Shown piece by piece: positions 44,436-64,000 of a DNA stretch of 64,000 bases. The notes under the pieces were generated by a model, which saw only the letters and a program-made list of their open reading frames with translations, had not been told where the DNA came from and did no database searches. The stretch is from a candidate division FCPU426 bacterium (GTDB lineage Bacteria; Oederibacteriota; Muellerivitia; Muellerivitales; Muellerivitaceae), in the NCBI GenBank assembly GCA_963796105.1, contig CAWCKJ010000004.1:1376001-1440000 (forward strand), given 5' to 3'. How positions within the stretch are numbered: the stretch's first letter is position 1; the number at the start of each line of letters is the position of its first letter. Both the position numbers and the translations under genes were made by a program.

Positions 44436-47291
44436 ATGAAATTATTTCAATTGGTGAAAAGAAAGCCTTTCCTTCTGGGCCTGCTTTCCTTGCTATGCGT
44501 CTCCTCGGTCCTTTGTTTTTATTACTTAAAAACCCATCCCAGGGGATTCGACATGGACCGGGACGAGGACGGCGAGAAGGAAGTGCATCCCAGGGTTTTG
44601 CAGGAATGGTTCAACCGGGGCAGGAAAAGCCCGGATGGCCGTCCCTCCGCGGCCCACCGGATGGAAGCCAAACGAAGAGCCTCCGCCCTTCCCCTGGCCC
44701 GGCCAGGAAACCAAGCGCTTCAGTCCAGGCTCCGCCCCGGGTTCGGAATTCCCCGAGATAACCCTCCCTGCGATTGGACCGAGATGGGTCCCTCCCCCGA
44801 AAATGACTCGGTGGATTTCCTGACTTCCTATGTCTATGGCAACGTCTCTGGCCGGATCACCAGCCTTGCCCTGGACCTTGCGAATGACAACACCGGAAAC
44901 ACCCTCTATGTGGGTTCGGCCTACGGGGGCGTTTGGAAAACCACCAACGGCCTCAACGGCTCACCTACATTCACTCCCATCAGCGACCCGACCCAAAGCC
45001 TGGCGATGGGGTCTTTGGCCCTGGACACCAGCGTGAACCCGCCCATTATTTACGTCGGGTCGGGTGAGCTGAACATGGCGGGGGATTCCTATTACGGGAC
45101 CGGAATATTAAAGACCACCAATGATGGGGCCTCCTGGACTCTTGCTGGTTCCGCCAACGGCGGGACGCTTTCTTTCATGGGCCTGGCCTTCTCCAAGCTT
45201 TTGGTGGATCCATCCAGCCCCTCCACGGTTTTGGCGGCGGCTGGTTTCGCCTGTTGTCACCCCGGTATCACCAACCTGAACCAGGGTCTTTACCGATCCA
45301 CCGACCAGGGAAACACTTGGACCCAGGTCTCCGCGGTCAACGGAACGGGACAAGCCATCGCTGGCCATTCCTTTACGGACATTATTTATGACGGGAGCGC
45401 GACTTTTTACGCGGCCGTAAGGTTCCAAGGGGTTTACGCCTCCACGGACCATGGAAACAGCTGGACCCAACTGCCTTCCCCCTTCCCCAGCGGAACTGCG
45501 CCGACTTCCGGGGGCGGAAGCAATTTCGCCCGGGCCACCCTGGCTTTCCGGGGAGGAACCCTTTGGTGCCTGGCCACCGACGCGAATGAGGGACCCTCAA
45601 TTCCGGTGAATGGAACGGATACAGGTCTTTCCCAGTCTGCGGATGGCGGTCACACCTGGACAGCCGTGAACCTTCCGGCCAATATTTTTGGAAGCGGCTC
45701 TGATGTCCAAGGAAACTATGATCAATATGTCGCGGCTCCGCCAAGTTCCACTGCTCTCTTAGTGGCCGGCATCGACTTATATGAAGCATCTACGGTCAAT
45801 GGTAAAAACACCTCCTGGACCAACCAGACGAACGCCTATTCAAGCACTCCCAAGAGCCACCCGGACCAGCACGCCGTCGCGTTTATGAATGCCAGCACCT
45901 GGTATATCGGAAACGACGGGGGTGTCTGGGCTACCCAGAACTCTGGCTCGCAATTCACCAATAAGAACACCAACCTGGGGACCATCCAGTTTTACAGCGT
46001 GAGCCCCGATCCCTCTGGTTTCGGTAAATTCATCGGCGGGTCCCAGGACAACGGCACAGCCGCCAACCACGGCAACGCCGGTTCCACCTGGACCCTTTAT
46101 TACGGCGGGGATGGAGGTTATACCGACGCCAATCCGGCCATGCTGGGACAGTTTTATTCGGAGAATTTCGGAATCGGTCTATTCCGTTCGGATAATTACG
46201 GCGCGGATTTCTTCACCCATGTTGTGGTTGACTCAAATTATGGCGCCATCTCAGGAGATGACGCTGGCATTCTAGTGCCTTACCAAGTACTGCCTAGCAA
46301 TCCCGCGACAGTGGTTCTGGGAACCTCCAGGGTTTGGGAGGGTCCCGGCAAACCCTCGGGGGATGGCTCCGGATGGGGCCCTATCAGCCCCTATTTGATT
46401 GGGAACGGCGCTTTCCAATATATCCTGGCTCTCGCCGTGGCTCCCAGCAACACAAGTTATATTTACGCCACCACCTCGGATGACAACGCGGGAAGCTACC
46501 AAGTATTCACCAACTCAGGCGGGAGCAATTGGACCAACGTTTCCACAGGTCTTCCCTCAGGGAACCCCATCGCGGGGATCGCGGTGGATCCCGGCAATCC
46601 GGCCATCGCCTATGCGGGCATCCAGGGTTTCGTGGGATCGACGGGATCTGGCCATATATTCCAAACCACCAACGGGGGAGGGAGTTGGACCGACATCACA
46701 GGCACCCTTCCTGACGCCCCGGTGAACTGGCTCCTGGTGGACCCACTCTTCCCGGGTGATCTATACGCCGCCACGGACGTCGGGGTATTTTCGACCCAGG
46801 CCGTGAACGGCGCCTCCACCAGCTGGTCCAGGATGGGATCAGCCCTTCCCGACAGCGTCATCCTGCAGATCAAGATGTCCGTAACCTGCCCGCGGCAGAT
46901 CGTGGCCACCACCCACGGACGGGGAGCCTGGGCCATCTGCCCCCTGGACACATCCTGTCCGCCCTCGCCTACACCCACCTATACACCGGTTTATGTTCCT
47001 TCCACCTCATTCAACGTCCAGGCATTGCCCAACAAGACTGACGGCCAGATCCCTGTCAGTTTCGCCGTAAACCTTCCCAGTTCGATGGATATCCAACTGA
47101 AGGTTTATGACCTAGTGGGAGAGTTGGTGTTCTCCAAGACCGTTCACGGGACAACCGGTTCCAATTCAATCTTGTGGCCCCCGAAAAACCAGGGCGGTAC
47201 GCCCCTGGCAAGCGGGCTTTATATCTATTTCGTGGAGGGAGGCGGCTCCTCCAACTTCCGCAAATCAGGCAAAATCGCCGTAGTTCGGTAG
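44436..47291 (+). CDS. Secreted BNR/Asp-box (sortilin/GH74-like) beta-propeller protein with an FlgD/T9SS-like C-terminal domain
   Basis: SGRI, GGVWKT, repeated S/T-x-D-x-G-x-x-W boxes, HPDQH, GNDGG, QDNGT, GGDG, THGRG; PT linker; tail ending LASGLY...KIAVVR. Confidence 0.85.
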   Translation: MKLFQLVKRKPFLLGLLSLLCVSSVLCFYYLKTHPRGFDMDRDEDGEKEVHPRVLQEWFNRGRKSPDGRPSAAHRMEAKRRASALPLARPGNQALQSRLRPGFGIPRDNPPCDWTEMGPSPENDSVDFLTSYVYGNVSGRITSLALDLANDNTGNTLYVGSAYGGVWKTTNGLNGSPTFTPISDPTQSLAMGSLALDTSVNPPIIYVGSGELNMAGDSYYGTGILKTTNDGASWTLAGSANGGTLSFMGLAFSKLLVDPSSPSTVLAAAGFACCHPGITNLNQGLYRSTDQGNTWTQVSAVNGTGQAIAGHSFTDIIYDGSATFYAAVRFQGVYASTDHGNSWTQLPSPFPSGTAPTSGGGSNFARATLAFRGGTLWCLATDANEGPSIPVNGTDTGLSQSADGGHTWTAVNLPANIFGSGSDVQGNYDQYVAAPPSSTALLVAGIDLYEASTVNGKNTSWTNQTNAYSSTPKSHPDQHAVAFMNASTWYIGNDGGVWATQNSGSQFTNKNTNLGTIQFYSVSPDPSGFGKFIGGSQDNGTAANHGNAGSTWTLYYGGDGGYTDANPAMLGQFYSENFGIGLFRSDNYGADFFTHVVVDSNYGAISGDDAGILVPYQVLPSNPATVVLGTSRVWEGPGKPSGDGSGWGPISPYLIGNGAFQYILALAVAPSNTSYIYATTSDDNAGSYQVFTNSGGSNWTNVSTGLPSGNPIAGIAVDPGNPAIAYAGIQGFVGSTGSGHIFQTTNGGGSWTDITGTLPDAPVNWLLVDPLFPGDLYAATDVGVFSTQAVNGASTSWSRMGSALPDSVILQIKMSVTCPRQIVATTHGRGAWAICPLDTSCPPSPTPTYTPVYVPSTSFNVQALPNKTDGQIPVSFAVNLPSSMDIQLKVYDLVGELVFSKTVHGTTGSNSILWPPKNQGGTPLASGLYIYFVEGGGSSNFRKSGKIAVVR

Positions 47292-47391
47292 TTTGGTTTT
47301 CAATAACCGACTAAAAGAATTAACATATAAAATCTTTCTGGGGAGAGAGGTTTGGATAAAGCTTTATATTCCCCTTAAAAGGTGCCGGATC

Positions 47392-49419
47392 ATGAAAAAG
47401 CTTGTATATCTTTGGATTTCCTTTTTATTAATGGGTTTGGCTTACGCGCAAAACGCTCAACCCGTTCCAACCGCAGATAACTCCGCTCCCGCGATACCAG
47501 AAGCTTCACCCACCCCGCCGCCCTTCGTGCCAATCAACCACGCGCCCGTTACTTTGGGCGAAGTGGATGTCTATGGCGAAAGGGTTGGGATCTCCAATAA
47601 GGAAATTTCTCCCGCGAACATACAAAACATCCAGGACACAGGCAACCTGGGAAAGGCCATGGATGAATTGTCCGGGTTGGAGACCCAAGGGGAAGGTGTG
47701 GGCAAGACCTGGAACACCCTAGCCATTCGGGGACAGTCCTTCAGGGAAACGGTCATCCTGGTGAATGGGGCGCGTGTTCCGGAAAGCTTCAATTTGGGAA
47801 CCCTTTCCACCGAGGATGTCCAAAAAATAGAAGTCGTTGAGGGCCCCCAGGCCCTGGCATTTGGCTCCGACGCGGTAGGAGGCGTCCTCAACATCACTAC
47901 CAGATCGGAAGCGGATAATACTTTTCATCTTCAAGCCGCCGGCGGGGATTTCAATACTTACCAGTTTCAGGGCTCCCTGCCTACCTTCCAAATCGGGGGG
48001 GTGAAAAACAATCTGAGCGGTAGCTGGTACAACAGCGACGGCTACCTTCCCCAAGATACGTGGGTCAATCCGGCGAATGGGGTCACTTACAACTTTACCA
48101 ATGAACAGCATTGGGATATCAACCACTCCGCCTCCCTGGAAATGGACAACGCCAAGCTCAACCTTTCGAGCGGATTTTTCCGGCATATCGGCAACGCGCC
48201 GGACGCCGACAACCCGGTCGCGGCCGGAACGGACCAGTATGACATGGACGGTTACCAGGATTCCTGGGGCGTGCAGTCCGTCTTGAAAAGCGAGAGCAAC
48301 TTTGGTGGAATGCAATTGGAACCCATGTTTTACGGGAACTATTCGGACGTGCTTAGATCCAACCCCATCGGCCATGATCCTACCTCGGGGCAATACGATC
48401 CCTACCACAATCAATACCTGAATTACGGAGCGCAGGTTTATTTGCGCGGGACCCAGGCGAGCACCGGGACTCAAATTTATCTCGGCCTGGAAGCGAGGGA
48501 GGAATGCCTTTGGAGCGGACTGTACGGAACCTTTTACAGGAATGAGGATTCATTGGTGGCGGGACGGACCTTGAAATTGGAAGATTCCTTGCGCCTGAGC
48601 CTGGTCAACAACCTGGATTATTATTCCTATTACAACCTGGTGGACAATCCGTCGGGTACTCTGGTCTGGGAGGCGGATAAAAACTGTCAGATGCATTTAT
48701 CCGTGGGGAAGGGTTACCAGGTTCCCACCTACGACGAGATGTATCTGCCCAACACGAATTTCAGCCTGCTTCCGCCCGCCCATTTGCAGCAGATCTATGG
48801 GTCCAAGTTCACGATCTACGCGGGGGACAAGGGTAACCCGGATTTGAAACCCGAGGAATGCCTGAACAGTGAACTGGGGATGGACCTGAAATCCGGGTCA
48901 TTCCAGTTCCAAGTAGCGGGTTTTTTCAATTATTACTTTTGTTTGATCAATCCTGAGGTGGATCCGAAAGATAATTATTGGACTTATTTCAACCTGAACG
49001 GGGCTTTTTTCGCCGGTGTCGAGGGATTGGCAAAGTACAGTTTCAGCGGCCAAGCGTCCGCATATGTTTCCGGCACTTATGTGCGCGCCGTGGACAATAA
49101 CGGCGATGATATCCAGGGCAGGCTGAGGGCCAAAGTCGTCCTAGGCTTGGATCTAAAGCCTGAGAGCCAATGGTTCTTGGACTTGAACGCCCGTTACGTG
49201 GACCGTAACCAGGTTTCCATAGTGTACTTGACGGATTTCGGAATCCAGCCGCCTCCGACGGGTTATTGGGACCTGAACGCCAAAGCCCAGTATACCGTGT
49301 CCACTCACCTCAAAGGTTTTCTGGAAGTGGAAAATATCCTCAACAGCCAGATGGCGACTTTCCAGGGAATTCTTCTGCCAGGAAGGTATTTTCAAGGCGG
49401 GCTTCAAGGTGAGTTTTAA
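47392..49419 (+). CDS. TonB-dependent receptor (BtuB-like)
   Basis: Plug motifs IRG, ILVNG, IEVVEGP-x-A-x-x-FGSDAVGGVLNITT; GNPDLKPE; VENILN; PGR...F C-terminus. Confidence 0.92.
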   Translation: MKKLVYLWISFLLMGLAYAQNAQPVPTADNSAPAIPEASPTPPPFVPINHAPVTLGEVDVYGERVGISNKEISPANIQNIQDTGNLGKAMDELSGLETQGEGVGKTWNTLAIRGQSFRETVILVNGARVPESFNLGTLSTEDVQKIEVVEGPQALAFGSDAVGGVLNITTRSEADNTFHLQAAGGDFNTYQFQGSLPTFQIGGVKNNLSGSWYNSDGYLPQDTWVNPANGVTYNFTNEQHWDINHSASLEMDNAKLNLSSGFFRHIGNAPDADNPVAAGTDQYDMDGYQDSWGVQSVLKSESNFGGMQLEPMFYGNYSDVLRSNPIGHDPTSGQYDPYHNQYLNYGAQVYLRGTQASTGTQIYLGLEAREECLWSGLYGTFYRNEDSLVAGRTLKLEDSLRLSLVNNLDYYSYYNLVDNPSGTLVWEADKNCQMHLSVGKGYQVPTYDEMYLPNTNFSLLPPAHLQQIYGSKFTIYAGDKGNPDLKPEECLNSELGMDLKSGSFQFQVAGFFNYYFCLINPEVDPKDNYWTYFNLNGAFFAGVEGLAKYSFSGQASAYVSGTYVRAVDNNGDDIQGRLRAKVVLGLDLKPESQWFLDLNARYVDRNQVSIVYLTDFGIQPPPTGYWDLNAKAQYTVSTHLKGFLEVENILNSQMATFQGILLPGRYFQGGLQGEF

Positions 49420-50659: not shown

Positions 50660-52453
50660 ATGAGTCCGAAGCTTTCACGAAATTCACCCACCCTCCGCAA
50701 CCTTCTGGTTCAAGAAGGATTCTTGTCCATTCTTAAATATTATGTTGATTTAAATTGTTCAGTTGTCTCATTTACTCCTGGCAGATTTTGGGTTCCCATT
50801 CACCAACATCAAAGAACGGCGACTTTTTTTGATTTGGAAAAAAAATACGGACTAGTTAGAAAACTGGATGAAGTTAATAATCCCTATTTCCGCTCCGCGT
50901 ATCAGGAAAAGCGCACTGTCCTGGGTGAATATCTGGATTTTGGATTTTATGATCTTTTCGTTCCCGTGGTCCGGGAGGATCGTTGCTTGGGCATGGTAAT
51001 CTCCGGAGTTTTTAAAAACCAAGAATGGACCAGACAAAAGCTGGAGGATAGCTGGTTGAAAATAAGCCGCCAGGAAACCACCTCGGATCATCCGGGATTC
51101 TTGGAATTCGTACGGATCGCCCTTGAAACCCCGGTTTTGGAAGGGGATGGTTACTTGGCTTATCGCGAGGCCATGGAAATCTTCTCGCGAATTTTGAGCG
51201 GGGAAAAGCCGCGATCAAAGAAGGACCATCTGAGGGAGCTTAAAGTAAAAGTATTCTCCAAAATATTTCCACATAGTTTTTGGATGGATTGGGCATTGGT
51301 CCGAAAGCCCGTTATGCAACCCTGGGGGATTGAAGTGCAAGAATTGGATTGGGTCAGGGAGGAAATCGGAATTACCCGAATTCCGACAACTGTCATTGCG
51401 GCCATACCCATTAAACCATCCGGAGGAAAAATCGATCCGGTTGCCGAGATGCTGCGGATTCACAGCTTACAACGACTGAGTTTTGATTTCGCCAAGACAC
51501 TGCCTCAAACGGTATGCGGAAAACTTGAGAACTACGGAGTGATTTTTGTTACCTCTGCGGATCCCGCCAAAAATCGCATACAGCGTAAAAACCAAATCGA
51601 GGAGACTGCTCGAAAAATTCACAAGTTTTCCTTGGATACTTTAGGGGGGGCCGCGCTGGTTGGAATTGGGGAAACGGTTTCTCCTGGCGAGCCTTTGAAT
51701 CGTTCCTATCGGCAAGCCGTGTTAGCCCTGCATTTGGGGAGCTATACCGGTAAGGAAGTGGTATTTTTCGATACCGCGCGCGAACCGGAAGCCGAGGGTT
51801 TATCGGAGCTCAGGCGGGTCCTGTTGGAATTAAAAAGGCAGCTGGTTGTCGCCTCATATTCAGACATGGAAATGATATTAGATGGATATTTAAAAATGGT
51901 TCTAACCCTCTCTTTCAGGAGTCCGGATGAGATCAGATGGCATTTACAATATGCGCTCATCCAATTAGTCGAGGCTGTCCGCGACCGCTCCGATTTACAC
52001 GAGCAAGAAGCCAATTGGCTCCACCAAAACCTTGCGCGCACTTTGGAAAAGGCCGTAACCACGCAAGAAATGATTTTGGCTTTTCGGGAATCGTTGTCGA
52101 AGCTTTCTGAAAGATTCGGAAAATTTAAGACGCTTAAGGAGGTTTATTCGATCGAGAAAACAAAGGATTATATTGATGTTCATTTTCGGGAGCCCTTAAG
52201 AGTGTCAAAGTTAGCGAAATTCACGGGCGTTTCCAGATCAACCTTTAGCCGCCGGTTCAAAAGGTTAACCGGGATGGGGTTGGAGACTTACATGCAAAAG
52301 CTTCGTTTGGATGAAGCGAAACGGCTATTGAAGACCAGCGGACTGCCTGTAGCCAGAATCGGGCAATATTGCGGATTTAAATCGGCATCATATTTCATAC
52401 ATTTATTCCAAAATAAAACAGGATTATCTCCCCGAAAATTCCGCCAGAAATAA
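50660..52453 (+). CDS. AraC-family regulator (PocR-like sensor, CdaR/GGDEF-like middle, AraC HTH)
   Basis: DLFVPV...LG-x-x-x-SG; VGIG...SYRQAVLAL; C-terminal FSRRFK-x-x-TG...RLDEAKRLL...CGF-x-S-x-SYF...G-x-SP. Confidence 0.9.
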   Translation: MSPKLSRNSPTLRNLLVQEGFLSILKYYVDLNCSVVSFTPGRFWVPIHQHQRTATFFDLEKKYGLVRKLDEVNNPYFRSAYQEKRTVLGEYLDFGFYDLFVPVVREDRCLGMVISGVFKNQEWTRQKLEDSWLKISRQETTSDHPGFLEFVRIALETPVLEGDGYLAYREAMEIFSRILSGEKPRSKKDHLRELKVKVFSKIFPHSFWMDWALVRKPVMQPWGIEVQELDWVREEIGITRIPTTVIAAIPIKPSGGKIDPVAEMLRIHSLQRLSFDFAKTLPQTVCGKLENYGVIFVTSADPAKNRIQRKNQIEETARKIHKFSLDTLGGAALVGIGETVSPGEPLNRSYRQAVLALHLGSYTGKEVVFFDTAREPEAEGLSELRRVLLELKRQLVVASYSDMEMILDGYLKMVLTLSFRSPDEIRWHLQYALIQLVEAVRDRSDLHEQEANWLHQNLARTLEKAVTTQEMILAFRESLSKLSERFGKFKTLKEVYSIEKTKDYIDVHFREPLRVSKLAKFTGVSRSTFSRRFKRLTGMGLETYMQKLRLDEAKRLLKTSGLPVARIGQYCGFKSASYFIHLFQNKTGLSPRKFRQK

Positions 52454-52720
52454 AGTGCGTTAGTTCAACCCGCCTAAGTATTTTCCTTCGTTTTGTGGAA
52501 CAGGACATGCCCTCGCCGATTAAACGAGAAACTTCCCTAAAAAATAAAGGTTCAATGCCGAGTGAAATTAAAAGCAATTATAATGACATAAAAAAGACAG
52601 TTACTTTGATTCGGGTTCGTGTTATTCCCAAGAAAGGGGGGTATATTTACTTTAAATTAATAATAAAAACCCTTTCATGCGGGGCGGTTTAAGCCCTTTT
52701 TGCATTGGTTGGAGAGTATC

Positions 52721-55700
52721 GTGACCGATATTCGCAAAAAAAAATTAAAACGTTTTTTATTTTGCCACACTAGGCGTGTCAATTTTTTTCTAAATGTAAC
52801 CGGTTTTATTCTTTCCGCCTTAATCATTCCTGCCGCATGGCCTTCTCATGTTTGGGCCACAACCTCCACCGTCACAGTCAACGCTTCCAGCGTAAGTGTA
52901 GTTCTTCCCAACACCCTTTTCGGACAAAACTATGCCGTTTATGACGGCTCGGCTACGGTGGGAAATACCGCCTATGTTCAGGCCGTATCGGCCATGGGCG
53001 CCTATCAACTTCGCTATCCAGGCGGAGGCTATGGTGACATGATCAATTGGAACAACGTTACCTGCCAGGCTTCCTATATGCCCACCATCGCCCAAAGCGT
53101 TTCCTTCGCAAGCGCGGCGGGTATTGTCCTTCAACCTATCGTGAATTATGCGGGGTATTGGTGTAGCGCATCAAACGGTCATACAGCTGCTGTAAGCTTG
53201 GCGGCGGCATGGGTGACTTATATGAATAAAAGCCCGGCCGCCATGCCCACCACTTACTGGGAGGTCGGGAATGAGACCTTTGTTAGCGGGGAGGAAGGCT
53301 ACACCTCGGATGACAACGCTGGCGGGACCACATACGGCAATAATTTTGTGGATTTTTACAACTCGATGAAGGCAGTGGATCCTAACATCAAAATCGGCGC
53401 GCAATGCCAATTCGACCATGCGGCCTTTTCGCAAGGGGCCGTCACGGCTATCAAGGCCAAGGGTGTCACTATGGACTTTATCATTTCGCACTCCTACCCG
53501 ATTTATAACGCCACAGACTCGACCGCAGAGGACACTACACTCTTGACCACCGACGTCACTGCGGCTACCACCCAAACCACCGCTTTGAATAACATTCTCT
53601 CAGCCGCGGGTTATCCTACCACCATCCCAAAGTGGATGACCGAGTATCGTTCCAGTGTGCCCGAAAACAAGGCTGTCGAATGGGTGGACTCCATGTGGGT
53701 GGCTCAATACCTTTTGGAACTCGGCAGAAACGGCTGGCAAGGCGCAAACGTTTGGGACATCAAAAACGGTTTCAACACCTCCTATACGTCCGATTATGGT
53801 CTCTTGCGTTCTGGAAGCGGGAATTCCGACGATGCCGCCAACCAGGTCAATACCCCGCGCCCGACCTGGTATGTTTATCCATTTCTTTCCAGGGTATTTG
53901 GCCGGAATTTAGTGAACAGTAGTTCAAGCTCGGCCAGCTTGGGTTGCTGGTCCTCAACGGATTCGTCAGGAAATTTAACCGTTTTTATGGTCAACAATGA
54001 TTTCTCCAACGCTTGCACCGTGACGGTTTCTGTCACCGGCTACACGCCCGGTACCGCTGGTTCCATTTGGACCCTTCAACCTGGTGGGACCACGAAATCC
54101 GGCGGAACTACCCCTGTTGAACAGCTGCGTGGCGTGACCATTAACGGGACATTTAATCCCGCGGTCTCCGCCATCCCCGGCACCGGAAATTCCATCACAA
54201 CCGGATCTAGTTTCCCTGTTACGGTTCCGATCGCATCCATGGTTCTGGTGAAAGTCCCTTCCGGCGGATCGCCTGTGCCAACCAATACTTTAACCAGGAC
54301 CTACACGCCGACCATAACACCCACTTTGACAAGGACTCCAACCGCCACCCCAACCCAATGTATCGTCGTGTTCAATGGTTGCAACACCGCTACTGACAAC
54401 GGAACCTGGAGCGGGACTGTCGGCACCCGAACTTTCATCACTTCCGGCTATCCAACAGGGGCCTTGACCGAGGGAACCGGGCTCATGAAAGTGGCTGTGG
54501 GCGCTACGACCCTTACCTGGGATAACGCACTTTTTAACCTTGCTGGTTTTACGCCGTCCTCATTCACTGGGTTTGTCCAATTGACCCTGGACCTCAACAT
54601 TGACGCTGGAATCACTAACCTCTGGGGAAGTTATCATACGATGCAGTTAGTCGCCGATTCCTCGACCAATAACCTTTATTCAGTAAGCATATCCTCCACT
54701 CAACCCAATCTTGTGGCCGGACAACAAACGCTGGTATTTAATTTGGATTATCCGGCGAGTATTACCTCCGCCATGCCCTTATCTACACTTTATTTTGTAT
54801 TAAATACCGGAAGCGCGGTTACGGGCATTAATATGTATGTGGATAACATTCGGTTATTGTCCTCTTGCGGTGTGCCGACAGCGACAGCAACCCCCACTCA
54901 AACCAACACGCCCACCCGAACGTCAACACCTACGGTGACCCCTACGCTAACCAACACTAGGACGAACACGGCCACGAATACCGCTACCGCGACTCCCACT
55001 CCGTCCCCAACCAGCACCCGCACCAATACACCCACGAATACGGCGACCAGTACCCAGACGAACACATTCACCAGCACCCCGACCTTGACCGCGACGAGGA
55101 CGAATACATCCACCAATACCGCCACCAATACGGCAACAGCCACCCTTACTCCGACCAGGACGAATACCGCCACCAATACCGCTACGGCTACCCTAACAAA
55201 CACATCTACCAACACCTCCACTAACAGCCCTACGCTCACAGCCACCGCGACGAGGACGAATACATCCACCAGTACGGCCACCAATACGGCTACAGCCACC
55301 CTTACTCCGACCAGGACGAATACCGCCACCAACACCGCCACGGCTACCCTAACAAACACATCTACCAACACCACCACAAACAGCCCTACACTCACGGCCA
55401 CCGCGACGCGGACGAATACTTCCACCAGCACGGCCACCAATACGGCGACTCTTACCACCACTCCAACCAGGACCAATACACCGACTAATACGGTGACCTC
55501 CACACCCACGAATACTCTGACCAATACCGCCACCAATACGGCGACATTAACTCCTACTCCGACCAGGACTAATACCGCGACCAATACGGTTACGGCCACT
55601 TTGACGAACACCTCTACCAGCACATCCACCAATACGCCGACGCCCACCCCAACCCCAACCAGGACAAACACTTCTACCAATACAGCCACAGCCACGATGA

Positions 55701-58279
55701 CGAATACATCTACCAATACCGCCACAAACACCCTGACGCTTACCCCGACTGCGACCCGAACGAACACGCCGACTAATACTTTGACATCCACATTTACAAG
55801 CACCCCGACTAACACCGCCACCAATACTCCGACAAGCACTTCGACTCCGACGAGGACCAATACGCCGACTAATACGTCCACAAACACCCCGACTCCAACA
55901 CCCAGCAATACCCCCACGAACACATCCACCAACACGAGGACGAATACCCCCACCAATACCTTGACTTCGACGAACACGAATACGCCGACAGTGACGCCTA
56001 CCGCCACCTATACCAGCACGGGGACCACGTCCCCCACGAATACGCCCACTATCACGCCGACCAGGACCAATACACCCACCCCGACGAATACCTCGACTTT
56101 CACTCCGACCCCAACCGTGACGAACACGTCCACCAATACTCCGACAGCCACGCCGACCAGAACCCCAACGCCCACATCCACCAACACCGCGACCCCGACG
56201 AATACTTCAACGAATACGCCTACTTCAACATCGACTAATACTTTTACAAACACAGCCACCAACACGAGGACCAACACACCCACTAATACCTCGACTCCAA
56301 CGAACACGAATACGCCGACAGTGACGCCTACCGCGACCAATACCAACACGGGGACCACGTCCCCCACGAATACGCCCACTATCACGCCTACCAGGACCAA
56401 TACATCCACCCCGACGAATACCTCGACTTCCACTGCGACACCAACCGTGACGAACACGTCCACCAATACGCCGACCAGAACATCCACGCCGACATCCACG
56501 AATACTTCGGCTTCCACGGCTACTGCGACTCCGACCAGCACCTTTACGAGTACGGCCACCAATACCAGGACCAACACACCCACTAATACCTCGACTCCAA
56601 CAAACACGAATACGCCGACGGTGACGCCTACCGCCACCAGTACCAACACAGGGACACAATCACCCACCAACACGCCGACAGTCACACCCACCTATACGAG
56701 CACACCAACACGCACTTCGACGCCCACGCCGACGAATACCTCAACATTCACCCCGACGCCGACAGCGACCAACACAACCACCAACACGCCGACTCGAACC
56801 CCAACGTTTACCCCCACCAACACCCTCACCGCGACCAATACGGCGACTTTCACGCTGACGAATACACCCACTCCAACGCAGACAAATACATTCACGAGTA
56901 CAGCCACCAACACCAAGACGAACACGCCCACCAATACAGCCACAACGACGAACACGAATACGCCGACAGTGACGCCTACCGCCACCAATACCAACACAGG
57001 GACACAATCACCTACCAACACGCCGACAGTCACACCCACCTATACGAACACTCCAACACGCACTTCGACGCCCACGCCGACGAATACCTCGACAGCTACG
57101 CCGACTCCAACGTCGACCAATACACCCACCAACACGCCAACCGACACGGCAACTAAGACTCCTACTCCTACGGCTACCAACACCGCTACCCCGACGCGCA
57201 CTTCCACAAATACGATGACCTCGACGCCCACCAATACATTCACGAGTACAGCCACCAGCACCAAGACGAACACGCCCACCAATACCGCGACCCCGACGAA
57301 CACGAATACGCCGACGGTGACGCCTACCGCCACCAATACCAACACAGGGACACAATCACCTACCAACACGCCGACAGTCACATCCACCTATACGAACACT
57401 CCAACACGCACCTCATCTCCCACTGCGACGAATACCTCAACAGCTACACCGACTCCGACTGCCACCAACACCTCCACGAACACTCCGACTTTCACTTTCA
57501 CGAATACGCCTTCTTCCACGCCTACGGCGACATTTACATCAACGTCTACCCCAACTTATACCTGGACGAATACACCGACGAACACGTTGACTCCGACTGT
57601 GAGCTTCACGCCAACGAATACGAATACCGGAACTCAATCGCCCACCCACACACCGACGGTGACGTTAACCTACACCCATACACCGACTAACACGCTCACC
57701 CCGACGATGACGAATACGCCGACGCCCACCAACACCTTTACAAACACATCCACCCCTACCTTTACCAGCACCAAGACCAATACACCCACGAATACAGCCA
57801 CCCTCACGCCAACCTCCAGCTTCACCCCTACGTCGACGAGGACATGGACCAATACCCCGACAGCAACAGCCACCGGGACCCCCACGGCTACCTACACGGC
57901 AACGTTCACTCTCACTAAGACGCCGTCCCCCACGCCGACTTTCACCGCCTCATACACTCCGACGGCTACTTTGACGGGAACTCCGACACCGGTTGGCAAA
58001 AATAGCGTGGTCATCTATCCAAATCCGGTTAACGGAACGGAACCAGTGACGATCCAGATCACCCTGAAGCAAAGTGAGCCGTTGGTTCGAATCGAGATAT
58101 TTACAGTGTCCTTCAGGAAGGTGAACGAGATTGACAGGACCCAAGTGCCTGTGGGGGTGACGGAAGTCCCACTCCCCCTGATGGACAAGGCGGGGAAGCC
58201 CCTTTCCAACGGAATCTACTACGTGGTGGTTCAGACACCCCAGGGACGCCTCGTCGCTAAATTGCTTGTTTTGAGATGA
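52721..58279 (+). CDS. Giant secreted clan-A glycoside hydrolase + CBM-like domain + ~1040-aa Thr-rich stalk + T9SS-like CTD
   Basis: LRYPGG, YWEVGNE, HSYP, MTEY, DYGLL; jelly-roll-like domain ending YVDNIRL; T-x repeats ~54870-57990; tail IYPNP...NGIYYV...KLLVLR. GTG start after GGAGAG. Confidence 0.88.
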
Positions 58280-58317
58280 CCTTATGTTTGGGGCTTTTGT
58301 GGGAGTAAAATACTTCC

Positions 58318-60120
58318 ATGGAATCTCCAGCCGCCAAAGCTTTTTCCCTTTTTAAAAACTACAGTCCCCTCCATAACATCATTCACTATTATGTGGATTT
58401 GAGCTGTTTTTTGGTTTCCAATTCGAAACCCTTGAATTGGTGGGCCTTGAATCGGCGTAAAAGAATCACAAGCTTTTATTCCCTTGAGGTCAAATATAGA
58501 AGCCTAGAAGATCGGGATCGGTTCACGGCTGATTGTTTCAGGCAGGCTCAATCGCAAAAACGAACCTTTTGCGGTGAACGTTTAGGTTTTATGGACTTTT
58601 TTGTGCCTATTTTAAAAGACGGAAGAGTTGTCGGTTTCTTGCAAGCGGGTTCTTTTGTCAGGGATGAAATCAACGCCGAAGTCATCAATAATTGTTGGAA
58701 GAAATTGACGGGGCTGGAAGCATCCGTCGCTTTGCCTGAGTACCGTGAATTTGTGAAAGTGCTATTAGAAGTGCCTGTCTTGGACGGGCCCCTGTTCACG
58801 GCGTTCCAAGAGGCTCTTGAAATGTTCGCGCGGCTTTTATCCGATGACAAAGAGGCGGATTCCATCGGAGAAAAGCTCCAACAGCTTTTATTGTCGGTTT
58901 TTTCAAAAAATCTCCCGCATAGTTATTGGATGGATTGGGCATTAGGGAGGCCTACCGCTGAATCCGTTCCCCCTTGGGATCACCGGGTCGTGAAATGGGA
59001 TTGGATTAGAAATGAGATTGGAATAACAAGAATTCCGACCACCGTTTTAACCGTTATCCCCCAGCGCCCAGGAGGGCATCCGCTGGGTTGGACTGAGGAA
59101 ATGCTCCTAATATACCGTTTCCAACGCCGGAGCTTTCGCTTCGCTCAAACTTTGCCACAAACGGTTGGCGGGAAATTGGATGATTATGGGGCGGTTTTTG
59201 TGACCTCGGTCGGTCCCCAACATTCCCGGTTAGCGCAAAAGGAGCAGGTGAGAAACATCGCGTTAAAAATCAGGGATTTCGCCCTGAAGGAATTAGAGGG
59301 GCCGGTCCTTATAGGAATCGGCGATTCTGTTCTTCCAGGAGAACATTTGGATTTATCCTACCGTCAGGCGGTATTAGCGCTTCATTTAGCAAGAAGAGAG
59401 GACAAAACAATTTTATTTTTTGAGGGTGGAAAAAAAGACACTTCAGTTGTAGGTTTTCCCGAATTAAGAGGTATTTTAATGGAATTGAACGATGCTTTTG
59501 CTAGAGGTCCTTTTTCGGATTTGGAGGTATTAAAAGATCGTTTTCTAAAACAAGTGATCAATATTTCCTTCCGGAATCCCTACGAAATAAGGTGGCATTT
59601 CCAATATGCCTTGGATCGTTTGGCCGAAACATTACAACACCGGATGGAATTCAGAAAAAAGGAAGCGGATTTGTTTTGGGAAAACCTAAATAAAACTTTG
59701 GAAGATTCCGCGACCATCCAGGAGATGATACTGGCTTTTCAGGAGATCCTCTCCAAGTTAGAACGGCAAATTGACAAGACATCAACCATTCAAACGGAAT
59801 TTTCAATAGAGAAAGTCCGGGACTTTCTGGCGCATCATCTTAAGGAACCCTTAAGGATTTCACGCGCGGCGGAAATGGCGGGCGTTTCCATTTCCACTTT
59901 TGGCCGCCGATTTAAAAGATTAACCGGCTTGGGTTTCGAGGCCTATCTGCAAAAATTGCGTCTTGACGAGGCTAGGCGACTTCTCAAGACGACTCGTCTT
60001 CCGATTGTGAGAATAGGGAAAGATTGTGGGTTTAAATCCAACCCCTATTTCTTTCAACTGTTTCGCAGGAAAAACGGCTGTCCACCACTCGCTTACCGCA
60101 GAAAAATGAAGAATATTTGA
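58318..60120 (+). CDS. AraC-family regulator, paralog of 50660..52453
   Basis: Shares HS(F/Y)WMDWAL, EIGITRIPTTV, LPQTV-x-GKL, SYRQAVLALH, EIRWH-x-QYAL and the AraC HTH. Confidence 0.9.
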   Translation: MESPAAKAFSLFKNYSPLHNIIHYYVDLSCFLVSNSKPLNWWALNRRKRITSFYSLEVKYRSLEDRDRFTADCFRQAQSQKRTFCGERLGFMDFFVPILKDGRVVGFLQAGSFVRDEINAEVINNCWKKLTGLEASVALPEYREFVKVLLEVPVLDGPLFTAFQEALEMFARLLSDDKEADSIGEKLQQLLLSVFSKNLPHSYWMDWALGRPTAESVPPWDHRVVKWDWIRNEIGITRIPTTVLTVIPQRPGGHPLGWTEEMLLIYRFQRRSFRFAQTLPQTVGGKLDDYGAVFVTSVGPQHSRLAQKEQVRNIALKIRDFALKELEGPVLIGIGDSVLPGEHLDLSYRQAVLALHLARREDKTILFFEGGKKDTSVVGFPELRGILMELNDAFARGPFSDLEVLKDRFLKQVINISFRNPYEIRWHFQYALDRLAETLQHRMEFRKKEADLFWENLNKTLEDSATIQEMILAFQEILSKLERQIDKTSTIQTEFSIEKVRDFLAHHLKEPLRISRAAEMAGVSISTFGRRFKRLTGLGFEAYLQKLRLDEARRLLKTTRLPIVRIGKDCGFKSNPYFFQLFRRKNGCPPLAYRRKMKNI

Positions 60121-60300
60121 GTGAAACGGCTTGTTTATAAAGAAATATCTATGAAGATAAAAAATAATCCAAATGACGTTAAAACGATATAATGCTATTT
60201 TCTCTTGAGCCCAGAGAAACTGAAAACGAGGTAAAATTAACTTGGGTTTTGAAGAACCGTCTAACAATTTAATAGCTTTGACTGGATGAGAGGAAGTTCC

Positions 60301-63300
60301 GTGAACCGGAAATTGATCTTATTTTTAACGGTTGGTTTGTTTGGAAGCGCTTCCGCTACATTAGCTGGTACTTGCACAGTGGATACCACGGCCACAAACC
60401 AGTTCATCAGGGGTTTTGGCGCTTCCAGCGCTTGGCATACCAGCGCCTACACTACGGCCCAGGCAACCATATTTTGGGATGACGCCGCCATGAACGGCAA
60501 CAGTCCGGCGGGAATCGGGCTTTCCATGCTTCGTTGTCGCATTCCTCCGGACGGGTCAACCGGTGAAATAGCTGTGATGACGCAGGCTAAGGGCCTGGGT
60601 TGCACCCAAATATGGGCCACCGAGTGGTCCGCTCCCGCCTCGATGAAAGACAACGATAACGTTAATAACGGCGGAGCGCTTCTTACCGGCAGTTACGCCG
60701 CATATGCCCAGTACCTCCTCAATTACGCCAAGACGTGTGAAAGTAACGGCATCACCTTGATGTGCATTTCCCCCCAAAACGAGCCGGATATGAATGTGAG
60801 TTATGAGTCCGGTACTTGGACGGGCCAGCAATTCCACGATTTTGTCTCGCAGAGCATGGGGCCGACATTCGCGGGCAACGCGACCAAAATTATGATTACG
60901 GAAACTTCCAAGAACGCTCTTTTAACCGCTGGCTGCGGCGTGACAGGAGACGCCACATGCTCGTTGAGCGATGCCGCCGCGGCCACATACATTTCTTACA
61001 TTGGCACCCATCTTTATGGGTCGGGCCCGATGTCCTTCACCCAACTCCAACAGAATCCCCCTTCGGGTTGGACGAGAGAATATTGGGAAACTGAAATGAT
61101 GGATTACAATAGCGGCGCGGCTTCCGACGACACGATGACGGATGGTTTGGCAACAGCAAGTTTGATCCACAAATCTATGGCGGACTCGGGCATGAACGCC
61201 TACCATTTTTGGTGGTTAGTTTGCGAAAACAGCAATACAAACCAGGGTCTCATTGATTATGACGGAGCAACCGTTCCTAAACGAACCTGGTGCATGGGAA
61301 ATTGGAGCAGATTTGTCCGTCCCGGATATTATCGAATGGGCGCCACTGAGGTGCCCTCCACCGGGGTGTCGGTATCCGCCTATAAAAACAACTCAAGCAC
61401 ATCACCGGCGACTGTTGTCATTGTCGCGATCAATGGCAGTACCGCGGCGGTTGCGCAAACTTTTACATTTAATGGTGTGACTGTCACTTCGGTCACGCCG
61501 TGGTTAACCGACTCCAGCAATAACCTAATCCAACAGACTGCGGTGCCAGTTTCGGGGAACAGCTTTTCCTTCTCTTTGCCGGCATCTTGCGTATGCTCTT
61601 TCGTCGGCGCTACTTCCTCCAGCGGATCTCCTGTCCCCACCAATACCATGACGCGCACCTTCACGATCACCCCGACCTTCACCCCCACGGCCACGACGGT
61701 GCCGCCCAAAATCACCCTGACCAAGACCACAGGCGGTCCCACTTCTAATTATTCGGACAATGGGCCTATTACAATGTTCCTGAATGTTTGCAATGGATCA
61801 GGGTCGGTCACGGCTAATTCGGTCACGGTGACTGACAGTATTACGAATCCCCTTGGATGGTCTTTCGAGGGACCTGGTTACAGTCAATGGACCGTGACAG
61901 AGTCTGGAGCGGCTGTGACAATCAATCCCACCAGCACGGCCTACCCCAACCTGACATGGGTGGTGAGCAACCTGCCGGGAGGGGCCTGCGTGCCGGTCAC
62001 CTTCATCGTGGGGTCCTACAGCGTCAATTCGGCCGATTACTGTAACGTGGTCACTGACGTCGGGATTGCCAGCTGGTCGGGCGGGGGGCCCGTGACCAGC
62101 AACAGTATCGCCATTTCGGTTGTGTGTACCACAGGGAGCACCGCCACCAACACGCCCACCAGGACCTCCACTCCCACCGTTACTAGGACGAACACGGCCA
62201 CGAACACCGCGACCCAAACGCCGACTGTAACCCCGACCAGGACAAACACGGCCACGAATACCGCCACCGCGACGCCCACGATCACCTCCACCAGCACCCG
62301 CACCAATACACCCACGAATACGGCGACCAACACCCTGACGAACACATTCACCGGCACCCCGACCATGACCGCGACGCGGACGAACACATCCACCAATACC
62401 GCTACCAATACGGCGACAGCCACTCTTACTCCGACCAGGACGAATACCGCGACCAATACGGTCACGGCTACTTTGACGAATACTTCTACCAACACCTCCA
62501 CTAACAGTCCGACTTTTACGGTTACCGCGACCCGGACGAATACTTCCACCAGCACCGCCACGAATACAGCGACTCTTACTTCTACCTCAACTAGGACAAA
62601 CACATCTACGAATACAACGACATCCACATCCACGAATACCCCGACGAATACCGCCACAAATACGCCAACACCCACTTTGACTCCGACCAGGACGAACACT
62701 TCCACTAACACAGCCACCAATACGGCGACCCTTACCTCTACTCCAACCAGGACAAACACATCTACGAATACAACGACAGCCACACCCACAAATACCCAAA
62801 CGAATACCGCGACGAATACGGCAACCTTTACTTCGACTGCCACTCGGACGAATACCGCGACCAATACTGCCACGGCTACCATGACGAACACTTCCACCAA
62901 CACAATCACCAGTACGGCGACACCCACTCTAACTTCGACCAGGACCAATACACCGACAAATACTTCCACAAGCACCCCGACTTCAACGCCCAGCAATACC
63001 TCAACGAACTCACCCACCTATACGAACACTCCAACGCGCACTTTGACTCCCACCCCGACGACCACAAATACGGCGACACCTACTTTGACTCCGACGAGGA
63101 CCAATACGCCTACCAATACGGCTACTCTGACGAACACCTCCAGCAATACCCCTACGAATACAGCCACCAATACCAGGACCAACACACCCACCAATACAGC
63201 CACATCGACGAACACGAATACGCCGACGGTGACACCTACCGCCACCAATACCAACACGGGGACCACATCCCCGACGAATACGCCTACGATTACCCCGACC

Positions 63301-64000
63301 AGGACCTCGACCCCCACGCCAACGAACACTTCAACATTCACGCCGACACCAACGGTGACAAACACGTCCACCAATACGCCGACTAGAACCTCTACGCCAA
63401 CCTCCACGAACTCAGCTACCTATACTAGGACCAGCACATCCACCAGTACCCCGACTCCGACGAGCACGAATACGCCGACGGTAACGCCTACCGCCACCAA
63501 TACCAACACGGGGACCACATCCCCGACGAATACGCCTACGATTACCCCGACCAGGACCTCGACCCCCACTTCGACGAATACCTCAACATCCACGCCTACA
63601 CCAACTGTGACGAACACGTCCACCAATACGCCGACAGCCACGCCGACCAGGACCGCTACTCCAACATCCACGAACACTTCGACCCCGACCAGCACATTAA
63701 CGAGCACAGCCACCAACACAAGGACCAACACGCCGACGGCTTCGATGACGCCTACGGCGTCCCTCACCGCTACCACGACGGTCACGAACACGATGACCGT
63801 TTCGGCTACGCCAACTCCAACCCAAACAAGAACGAATACGCCAACTGTGACGCCTACCGCGACCAATACCAACACCGGAACCCAGTCGCCTACCAACACG
63901 CCGACTATCACATCCACCTATACGAACACCCCGACACGCACCCCGACGAACACTTCAACATCCACACCGACACTAACGGTGACGAACACGTCCACCAATA
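60301..64000 (+). CDS. Giant secreted GH30 hydrolase + DUF11-like domain + Thr-rich stalk (3'-truncated by the window; missing from the ORF track)
   Basis: GTG at 60301 after GAGAGGAAG; signal peptide; [41 protein letters not shown]; then ITLTKT...VTVTD; T-x repeats to the window end. Confidence 0.9.

Follow-up and report, generated by a model that had tools for sequence, protein, structure and literature searches.

In Bacteroides, hybrid two-component systems (HTCS) form expanded sets of paralogues with AraC output that lie next to glycan-degrading genes; their operators are spaced direct repeats of 16+5 and 12+9 bp, that is, of 21-bp period, and related paralogues have a common motif, as described in the available portion of PMC3878776. 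According to the accessible parts of PMC3572039 and PMC8579813, XydR of Ruminiclostridium cellulolyticum and PecR, XylQ and HemR of Caldicellulosiruptor bescii are AraC-family proteins that activate genes for secreted hemicellulases or pectinases and have tandem-repeat sites upstream of promoters, and activator sites in the form of spaced direct repeats upstream of promoters appear in the same portions of PMC3878776 and PMC8579813. PocR, the regulator of the Salmonella pdu and cob genes, and short PocR-AraC proteins combine a PocR-type N-terminal sensor with AraC output. Here we compare with these systems a locus in a 64,000-nucleotide stretch of DNA (the window) from a candidate division FCPU426 bacterium (contig CAWCKJ010000004.1, positions 1,376,001 to 1,440,000), whose genome, G000, is 96.8% complete. 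Co-oriented on its plus strand, to which all coordinates below refer, are four open reading frames in the order given by the initial annotation: regulator A1 (50660..52453, 597 aa), enzyme G1 (52700..58279, 1,859 aa counted from TTG), regulator A2 (58318..60120, 600 aa) and enzyme G2 (60286..64000, 1,761 aa in the genome, running past the window to G000:C4:1441571).

Our analysis leads us to propose, with a probability of roughly 0.7, that four-domain AraC regulators of the A1/A2 family act as sugar-responsive activators at a predicted 21-bp repeat upstream of stalked hemicellulase genes, the products of which would leave the cell by a reduced type IX-like export route. The established parts of this proposal are the regulator architecture, the linkage to stalked genes, a repeat at a fixed distance from the −10 hexamer, the clade-wise sorting of neighbours and, in another clade, a separate motif. 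We take the unit to be a small regulon specific to a clade, of xylan type at this locus, and not a one-to-one pair. It works like the HTCS regulons and XydR, as far as the available portions of those sources describe them, and is a member of neither; what is of a known kind is the local AraC activator beside secreted hemicellulases, while the four-domain soluble sensor family, the predicted operators, the stalked type IX-like targets and their occurrence in an uncultured lineage appear to be new.

A1 and A2 had been described as roughly 600-residue paralogues with the motifs HSxWMDWAL, EIGITRIPTTV and EIRWHxQYAL, and they are indeed 46% identical over 579 aa and contain these motifs. The three-domain architecture assigned to them has to be replaced by one of four domains, as judged from profiles and a structure model of A2 (pLDDT 84.7, pTM 0.66). 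In this model, residues 1-178 resemble GAF-type domains (Z 10.1-10.2, root-mean-square deviation [rmsd] 3.1-3.8, 115 aligned), residues 199-371 resemble GGDEF folds (Z 11.8, rmsd 3.5, 140 aligned) and residues 494-600 resemble AraC domains such as that of AdpA (Z 17.7, rmsd 1.1, 107 aligned). Between the GGDEF-like and AraC domains lies a helical bundle (380-490). Both regulators are accordingly annotated with a PocR/GAF-like sensor, a degenerate GGDEF-like domain, a helical bundle and an AraC double helix-turn-helix (HTH). Profile matches at E<=0.05 among 30 aligned members were to HTH_18 (30/30), GGDEF_2 (21/30) and PocR (20/30), the GGDEF_2-like ones all lying below the cut-off, and solved structures match the regulators by sequence in the AraC part only. 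No membrane segment was found in A1 or A2 (peak 19-residue hydropathy 1.11 and 1.42), in agreement with the cytoplasmic sensing first suggested for them, and by these sequence features the regulators are soluble cytoplasmic sensors.

This layout sets the family apart from its closest functional counterparts. Unlike HTCS, the window regulators have no periplasmic sensor, membrane segment, kinase or receiver, and no kinase or receiver domain occurs among the 25 of 28 families listed for the 30 aligned members. XydR is long too, at 532 aa, but the accessible part of PMC3572039 describes an N-terminal receiver and a need for a kinase, where the window family has the PocR/GAF-like sensor instead; the similarity of the middle region to receiver-AraC proteins is weak (best E 6e-4 over 52 residues, among the proteins of 80 loci). 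PocR has the same kind of sensor and output, and the sensor profile matches four short AraC proteins (293-323 aa) in the fetched loci at E 1e-5 to 3e-8. Unlike PocR, however, the window regulators are twice as long, have GGDEF-like and helical domains inserted and lie in a context of polysaccharide breakdown, and the PocR equivalog model NF047788 scores them at 67-70 bits against a cut-off of 500, through the HTH part and not over the full length.

The host genome encodes six paralogues of the family, which make up 6/7 of its AraC-HTH matches. The family is present in 30/30 genomes of the host's own family and in 1/1, 3/5 and 2/2 genomes of three other families, and it was not found in the 60 genomes of 19 further families that were searched. 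A sister group matches the family over its full length (profile-profile probability 100, 550 columns, 22% identity) and includes many Polyangiaceae-labelled proteins, and none of the database matches examined was a named or characterised member of the regulator family. P0266 and its relatives represent this sister radiation, with 168 matches at E<=1e-30 to Polyangiaceae-labelled and soil metagenome proteins; as for Polyangiaceae gene neighbourhoods, one metagenome scan gave no match and another gave nearly all generic AraC matches. Two minor observations on family members are that the regulator gene lies in two frames at L054 and L084, by frameshift or assembly error, and that a group II intron reverse transcriptase (L042:6648-7955) adjoins a regulator in G002.

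The tabulation of regulator homologues across genomes that the initial annotation had called for yielded 114 loci from relatives, 10 of which were left out because they lie at contig ends. Among the 104 assessable loci, 64 have a co-oriented stalked, C-terminal domain (CTD)-bearing or stalk-family gene directly downstream and 15 have a divergent one, so that 79/104 face such a gene; the background in the host genome, by a stricter test, is 80/3,367 genes, and because the genomes are kin these counts are not independent trials. In the host genome itself, which encodes 122 CTD proteins and 49 proteins with stalks of at least 500 aa (giants), five of the six regulators directly precede or diverge from a giant stalk gene (background 37/3,367 genes), and the sixth lies inside a GH44, GH29 and GH35 cluster (GH, glycoside hydrolase). 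The linkage of the regulator family to stalked carbohydrate-active enzymes, on which the idea of a distinct modular system rested, thus stands. The same holds for stalked partners in relatives, but not for their giant size, as kilo-residue stalks are confined to this genus.

The neighbours also sort by regulator clade. Regulators of the A1 and A2 clades mostly have GH30 neighbours, together with GH67 and an esterase; two clades have GH74 or GH44 neighbours; one is found with a SIS-domain gene and a sugar-binding protein or GH18; and further clades adjoin uncharacterised heads. On the regulator tree, the neighbour classes require 15 changes compared with a shuffled mean of 40.1, a number reached in 0/200 shuffles, for 71 regulators with an identifiable neighbour whose labels were assigned by hand and among which close kin inflate the result. 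Outside the genus, A1 orthologues mostly precede GH30 genes, and G1-family genes take that place only in the host and its congener, where one A1 lies upstream of two G1-family genes, each with its own site. Since the A1 and A2 clades mostly stand before GH30 genes in relatives, regulator A1 is not tied to the family of G1.

Regions downstream of the A-clade regulators have in common the sequence TGAAATAAAAGTCAA-N6-TGACGTT, and a de novo sampler recovered the repeat in 18/18 training regions, a set from which the host genome, its congener and the A-clade loci L053, L055, L059 and L108 were left out. A −10-like hexamer follows at offset 77-79 in 17/18 of these regions, often with TTG at −35, and a further conserved element lies about 42 nt upstream of the repeat. 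When the 9,956,120 positions of the host genome were scanned with the resulting matrix, the best match was predicted operator 1 in the window (52563..52602, 29.1 bits) and the second-best was predicted operator 2 (60153..60192, 20.0 bits), while 1,000 column-shuffled matrices reached at best 15.0 and 16.8 bits; the best internal period of the real matrix is 21. Operator 1 consists of two half-sites in direct repeat with a 21-bp period, and the first half-site of operator 2 is one base off that of the congener. The likeness to HTCS sites in repeat and period is one between described operators and predicted ones. Each predicted −10 hexamer, TATATT (52642..52647) and TAAAAT (60232..60237), begins 79 nt after the start of its operator, the former without a consensus −35, and a generic sigma-70 scan did not detect the window promoters, as expected from their poor −35. 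The distal conserved element TAAACGAGAAA (52521..52531), 42 nt (2 x 21) 5′ of operator 1, is possibly a third half-site, to judge by sequence and spacing.

The motif follows the regulator clade. Sites of at least 27 bits within 300 nt were found at 9/11 held-out A-clade loci, a count not made up of independent cases, whereas 0/23 scored loci of other clades exceeded 8.6 bits. Searched as an exact pattern in 31 genomes, the repeat has 12 matches, 11 of them in regulator loci, and the reversed pattern has none; the twelfth match sits inside an unrelated gene and was set aside as chance. In the host genome, only 2 of 126 CTD or giant genes have a site of at least 20 bits. These observations bear on the idea that another factor, such as a global regulator or a sigma factor, reads the repeat, and that the AraC genes only travel along with carbohydrate gene clusters or act as repressors. 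Binding of the repeat by the AraC proteins is itself a prediction, the host has eight LacI-family genes, several of these promoters contain LacI-like palindromes, and 20/27 A-clade regulators have another stalked gene immediately upstream as well, so that clustering alone would enrich for such neighbours. We nevertheless find this idea hard to credit, because the motif tracks one regulator clade, a second clade has a motif of its own, the sites are so sparse among stalked genes, and a direct repeat of 21-bp period that lies 5′ of a weak −35 agrees with AraC-type activators as described in the available portions of PMC3878776 and PMC8579813. The conserved operator-like repeat argues for direct control by the adjoining regulators.

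With respect to LacI-type regulation, the palindromes TGTAACCGGTTACA and GAAAGCGCTTT occur in A-clade promoters of relatives (L039, L054 and L013), and partial ones occur in the window at 52795 and about 50538; it is possible that they provide a second, repressing layer. At L057 and L133, the A-type site downstream of the regulator is followed by a short LacI-like frame and then by a GH30 gene, which at L133 has its own second site.

How far a regulator reaches beyond the next gene can be judged from the same sites. Strict one-to-one modules, in which each regulator controls only the adjacent gene and senses the product of that enzyme, would account for the presence of just two strong A-type sites in the host genome, one downstream of each window regulator, and for the recurrence of the regulator-enzyme-regulator-enzyme order in G001, G002, G004 and G012. 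The sensors of A1 and A2 are, moreover, distinct conserved clades, and the accessible part of PMC3878776 proposes adjacent target genes for paralogous Bacteroides HTCS with similar motifs. Such modules are still unlikely. A single operator consensus serves both the A1 and the A2 clade; five sites precede enzymes without an adjoining regulator, one of these enzymes being encoded by another gene of the G1 family in the congener; A1 orthologues stand mostly upstream of GH30 rather than G1-type enzymes; in the GH74/GH44 clade, five promoters are common to three paralogues (see below); and 5/49 giants adjoin a regulator, while 44/49 do not. In one case, an inserted gene separates regulator from target and the site remains with the target. 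The one sensor per long-reach enzyme suggested at the outset is therefore not supported, with six regulators for 49 giants and one operator class for both window regulators, and neither is dedicated pairing: among 20 giant heads scanned, seven are recognisable hydrolases (GH5, GH8, GH9 and GH116), and none of these adjoins a regulator.

A clade-specific regulon is also what the second repeat, TATAAA-N15-TATAAAT, points to. It has a 22-bp period, lies over the −35 position and marks the GH74/GH44 clades, with five of the top six distinct matches in the host genome located in loci of these clades. It is found upstream of two GH74 giants, of a GH44-GH29-GH35 cluster and of a lipoprotein cluster, and it is, from its sequence and placement, probably the mark of a xyloglucan regulon common to three paralogues and five promoters. 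The sites are at G000:C4:1223545, C4:1241677, C7:41405, C7:43548 and C7:31438.

What the regulators sense may be read from how they differ. The initial annotation noted divergent N-terminal sensor regions, and the sensor is the least conserved domain between A1 and A2 (36% identity, versus 53%, 46% and 60% in the other domains). Sensor identity is 54-56% inside the A1 or the A2 clade and 36% across the two, while HTH identity is 57-62% inside and 55% across, and the sensor together with the Trp-rich junction to the GGDEF-like fold is kept inside clades and differs across them. In the mechanism we propose, basal enzyme would free hemicellulose fragments that reach the cytoplasm, where a fragment may bind the PocR/GAF-like domain, the clade-specific Trp-rich segment at the junction of that domain with the GGDEF-like fold (conserved Trp residues at about 204-229), or both. 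Two AraC domains on half-sites centred at about −82 and −61 would then bring RNA polymerase to a promoter whose −35 is weak. As the difference between A1 and A2 is in the sensor and hardly in the DNA-binding domain, two different signals might converge on one promoter type. No clear terminator was found between G1 and A2, and A2 starts only 38 nt past the G1 stop, so it is likely read through from the G1 promoter; such read-through would raise A2 and create a feed-forward chain.

It is also conceivable that control is real and that the input is not the substrate sugar but a small metabolite that binds the PocR-like domain, a nucleotide signal for which the GGDEF-like fold is the receptor, or a partner protein. 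The GGDEF fold over residues 199-371, the small non-sugar molecules with which PocR-type sensors are associated, and the position of some clades upstream of genes without a known catalytic domain are in keeping with such an input. Regulator clades, however, sort by the substrate class of their neighbours, the sensor and Trp-rich junction are conserved inside clades and different across them, and the GG[DE]EF active-site motif is absent from both A1 and A2, so that we assign a non-sugar input very little weight and retain sugar-responsive activation as our working model.

The catalytic heads of the two window enzymes differ, as had been noted from the sequence. G1 comprises a signal peptide, a clan-A head (52859..54268; a (β/α)8 barrel plus β-sandwich of the GH51/GH79/GH39/GH44 group), a short Thr linker, an accessory domain (54356..54874; about 170 aa, a probable β-sandwich module), a (T-X)n stalk (54878..58000) and a type A CTD-like tail (58007..58276). 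The head has no Pfam match; its structure model (pLDDT 64) fits structures of GH51 and of GH79 equally well (Z 26.2-26.3, rmsd 3.0-3.6, about 400 aligned), and the closest family by sequence is GH39 (E 2e-10). The predicted catalytic residues E192 (GNE) and E315 (MTEY) are invariant in 5/5 aligned family members, and by its modelled fold G1 is an unassigned clan-A hydrolase, similar to GH51, GH79 and GH39. Its relatives, at 26-31% identity, include Alicyclobacillus proteins of 707-708 aa and actinobacterial CBM2-bearing proteins, and the frequent CBM2 on these distant relatives points to a plant polysaccharide as substrate. The genus and the length alone suggest kinship to CelA4, a characterised glucanase of 715 aa (in the accessible part of PMC2880286). 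The accessory domain matched neither Pfam nor any Protein Data Bank (PDB) sequence, and from its position our guess is a binding module.

G2 comprises a signal peptide, a GH30 head (60364..61620; predicted catalytic E166 and E270), an accessory domain without a Pfam match, a (T-X)n stalk (62149..64000, continuing past the window end) and a type A CTD-like tail that lies outside the window. The nearest solved relatives of the head are the xylanases 5CXP (E 6e-50), 7N6H and 1NOF, at E 6e-50 to 1e-47, that is, the GH30_8 enzymes CaXyn30A (5CXP) and EcXynA (1NOF) and the GH30_10 enzyme AcXbh30A (7N6H); against the XynC model it scores 212 bits, compared with a cut-off of 650. In canonical GH30_8 enzymes, the RR motif of the β8-α8 loop binds glucuronate and makes the enzyme glucuronate-dependent, according to the available part of PMC5934979. 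Unlike these, G2 has no RR motif, with FWWLVCE where 1NOF has WWYIRR. As both catalytic glutamates are kept and the RR motif is gone, the sequence suggests that G2 is likely a glucuronate-independent xylanase. For both enzymes, GTG codons (52721 for G1 and 60301 for G2) are the likely starts because of ribosome-binding-like purines in the sequence.

The two unrelated heads stand on related stalks, another feature that had been recognised correctly: over their final 1,390 nt, the genes for G1 and G2 have 84% DNA identity, and 82/90 residues of their CTDs are identical. The stalks are strictly phased (T-X)n sequences with internal repeats of 156, 252 and 348 nt. In the stalk of G1 (about 1,040 aa, 49% Thr), every second residue is Thr (501 in one phase and 6 in the other), and in that of G2 (about 1,046 aa in all, 48% Thr) the two phases have 497 and 8 Thr. 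Such similar tails on unrelated heads suggest head swapping through recombination in the stalk. Stalks reach 1,600 aa in the host genome; the median stalk is 1,192 aa in the congener (n=6) and 332 aa elsewhere (n=115), and stalks of at least 800 aa occur in this genus only (0/115 elsewhere). Among the other giants, a GH5 giant at C4:130973 has a tail in common with G1 and G2 (90%), and three giants have expansin-like (Barwin/DPBB) heads (G000:C3:472453, C3:800373 and C4:607165), which could loosen plant walls beside the hydrolases. The biggest giant head family has 15 members (G000:C9:35281 and 14 others) with a Cys-containing head of about 350 aa that has no Pfam match, and a head resembling it sits after the R968 regulator clade.

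With a signal peptide, a catalytic head and a C-terminal TIGR04183 domain above the cut-off, G1 and G2 resemble type A cargo of the Bacteroidota type IX secretion system (T9SS), although the tails exceed the cut-off narrowly (23.6 bits for G1 and 24.7 for G2, compared with 23). Unlike that cargo, they have phased (T-X)n stalks, and their genome has SprA below cut-off and PorU only as a CTD match. A SprA-like gene is present in 28/31 genomes of the host's family, and 16 PorV-family genes of the host genome score above cut-off; the GldM/PorM profile matched nothing in the host genome and nothing in any control genome either. If export does occur through the CTD, the (T-X)n stalk would keep the catalytic head away from the cell or the tail.

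A number of results weigh against the model. Among the 104 assessable loci, 25 do not face a stalked or CTD-bearing gene, 12 having a stalked gene on another side only and 13 having none on either side; the latter speak against the strict two-gene module of the initial annotation. For the paralogue at G000:C4:970411, no catalytic domain was recognised in the partner. We picked the 18 training regions after the motif had been seen by eye and several held-out loci are near kin of training loci (79-92% protein identity), and for these two reasons the held-out counts are not independent; 2/11 held-out A-clade loci have no motif within 300 nt, a result checked again out to 450 nt for one of them. 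The R968, CE4-like and SIS clades yielded no usable matrix: free sampling settled on coding sequence in the sets for R1239 and SIS and did not pick up the R968 site, and −10-anchored matrices for the R968 and CE4-like clades gave no meaningful sites in the host genome. As for the signal, the PocR sensory domain (PF10114) matches A2 marginally (25.5 bits, cut-off 23.9) and gives no match to A1, and the molecules known for PocR domains are small diols and not oligosaccharides. The G1 head is assigned to a clan only, with no substrate. As for export, the SprA-like frame of 2,020 aa in the host genome reaches 116.7 bits (E 6.6e-34) against a cut-off of 200, and all 35 PorU sortase matches in that genome cover model positions 962-1095, that is, the CTD; for these two reasons, export and anchoring are put forward as a proposal only.

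The window system is neither a SusC/D locus nor a cellulosome, as had been thought from the sequence: SusD (PF07980) and dockerin (PF00404) each gave 0 matches in the host genome, with one and two positive control genomes, respectively, and the targets, unlike those at HTCS loci, are stalked CTD-bearing enzymes and not SusC/D clusters. We found no literature that treats this regulator architecture or the stalked CTD enzymes of the lineage within a coverage that leaves out subscription journals, and the available portions of two papers on the FCPU426/Goldbacteria group do not mention these regulators. Our findings suggest that the Bacteroides pattern emerged a second time, with one-component sensors in the cytoplasm and stalked cargo that is type IX-like. 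They provide a testable regulatory code, from regulator clade through predicted operator to enzyme class, for an uncultured and apparently polysaccharide-degrading lineage, and the operators and soluble sensors lend themselves to tests in a laboratory host, with no need for a culture of the organism itself. They could become biosensors for hemicellulose fragments, and the clade-to-neighbour pattern helps to assign substrates to unclassified enzymes such as G1. We may speculate further, as a doubtful extension, that the family, as the lineage's main AraC repertoire, is the control layer of a third plant-wall-eating strategy without SusC/D or a cellulosome, in which soluble sensors of imported sugars would build their sugar site in part from a repurposed GGDEF fold, catalytically dead, and from a Trp-rich lid, interchangeable heads would ride on strictly alternating (T-X)n stalks through a motor-less and sortase-less type IX-like pore, and the sister radiation would carry the regulator into Polyangiaceae soil myxobacteria.

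Two neighbouring regions deserve mention. Upstream of A1, window positions 44436-49419 hold a gene for a BNR/Vps10-repeat protein with a CTD-like tail and no stalk, followed by a TonB-dependent receptor with no SusD adjoining, and this receptor is also found upstream in the congener. Between two regulator loci, G000:C4:1229567-1233603 encodes an extracytoplasmic function (ECF) sigma factor, a small protein with a CTD/FlgD-like end, a secreted CTD protein and a PorV-family protein, and a unit resembling it comes after an A1 orthologue in L055.

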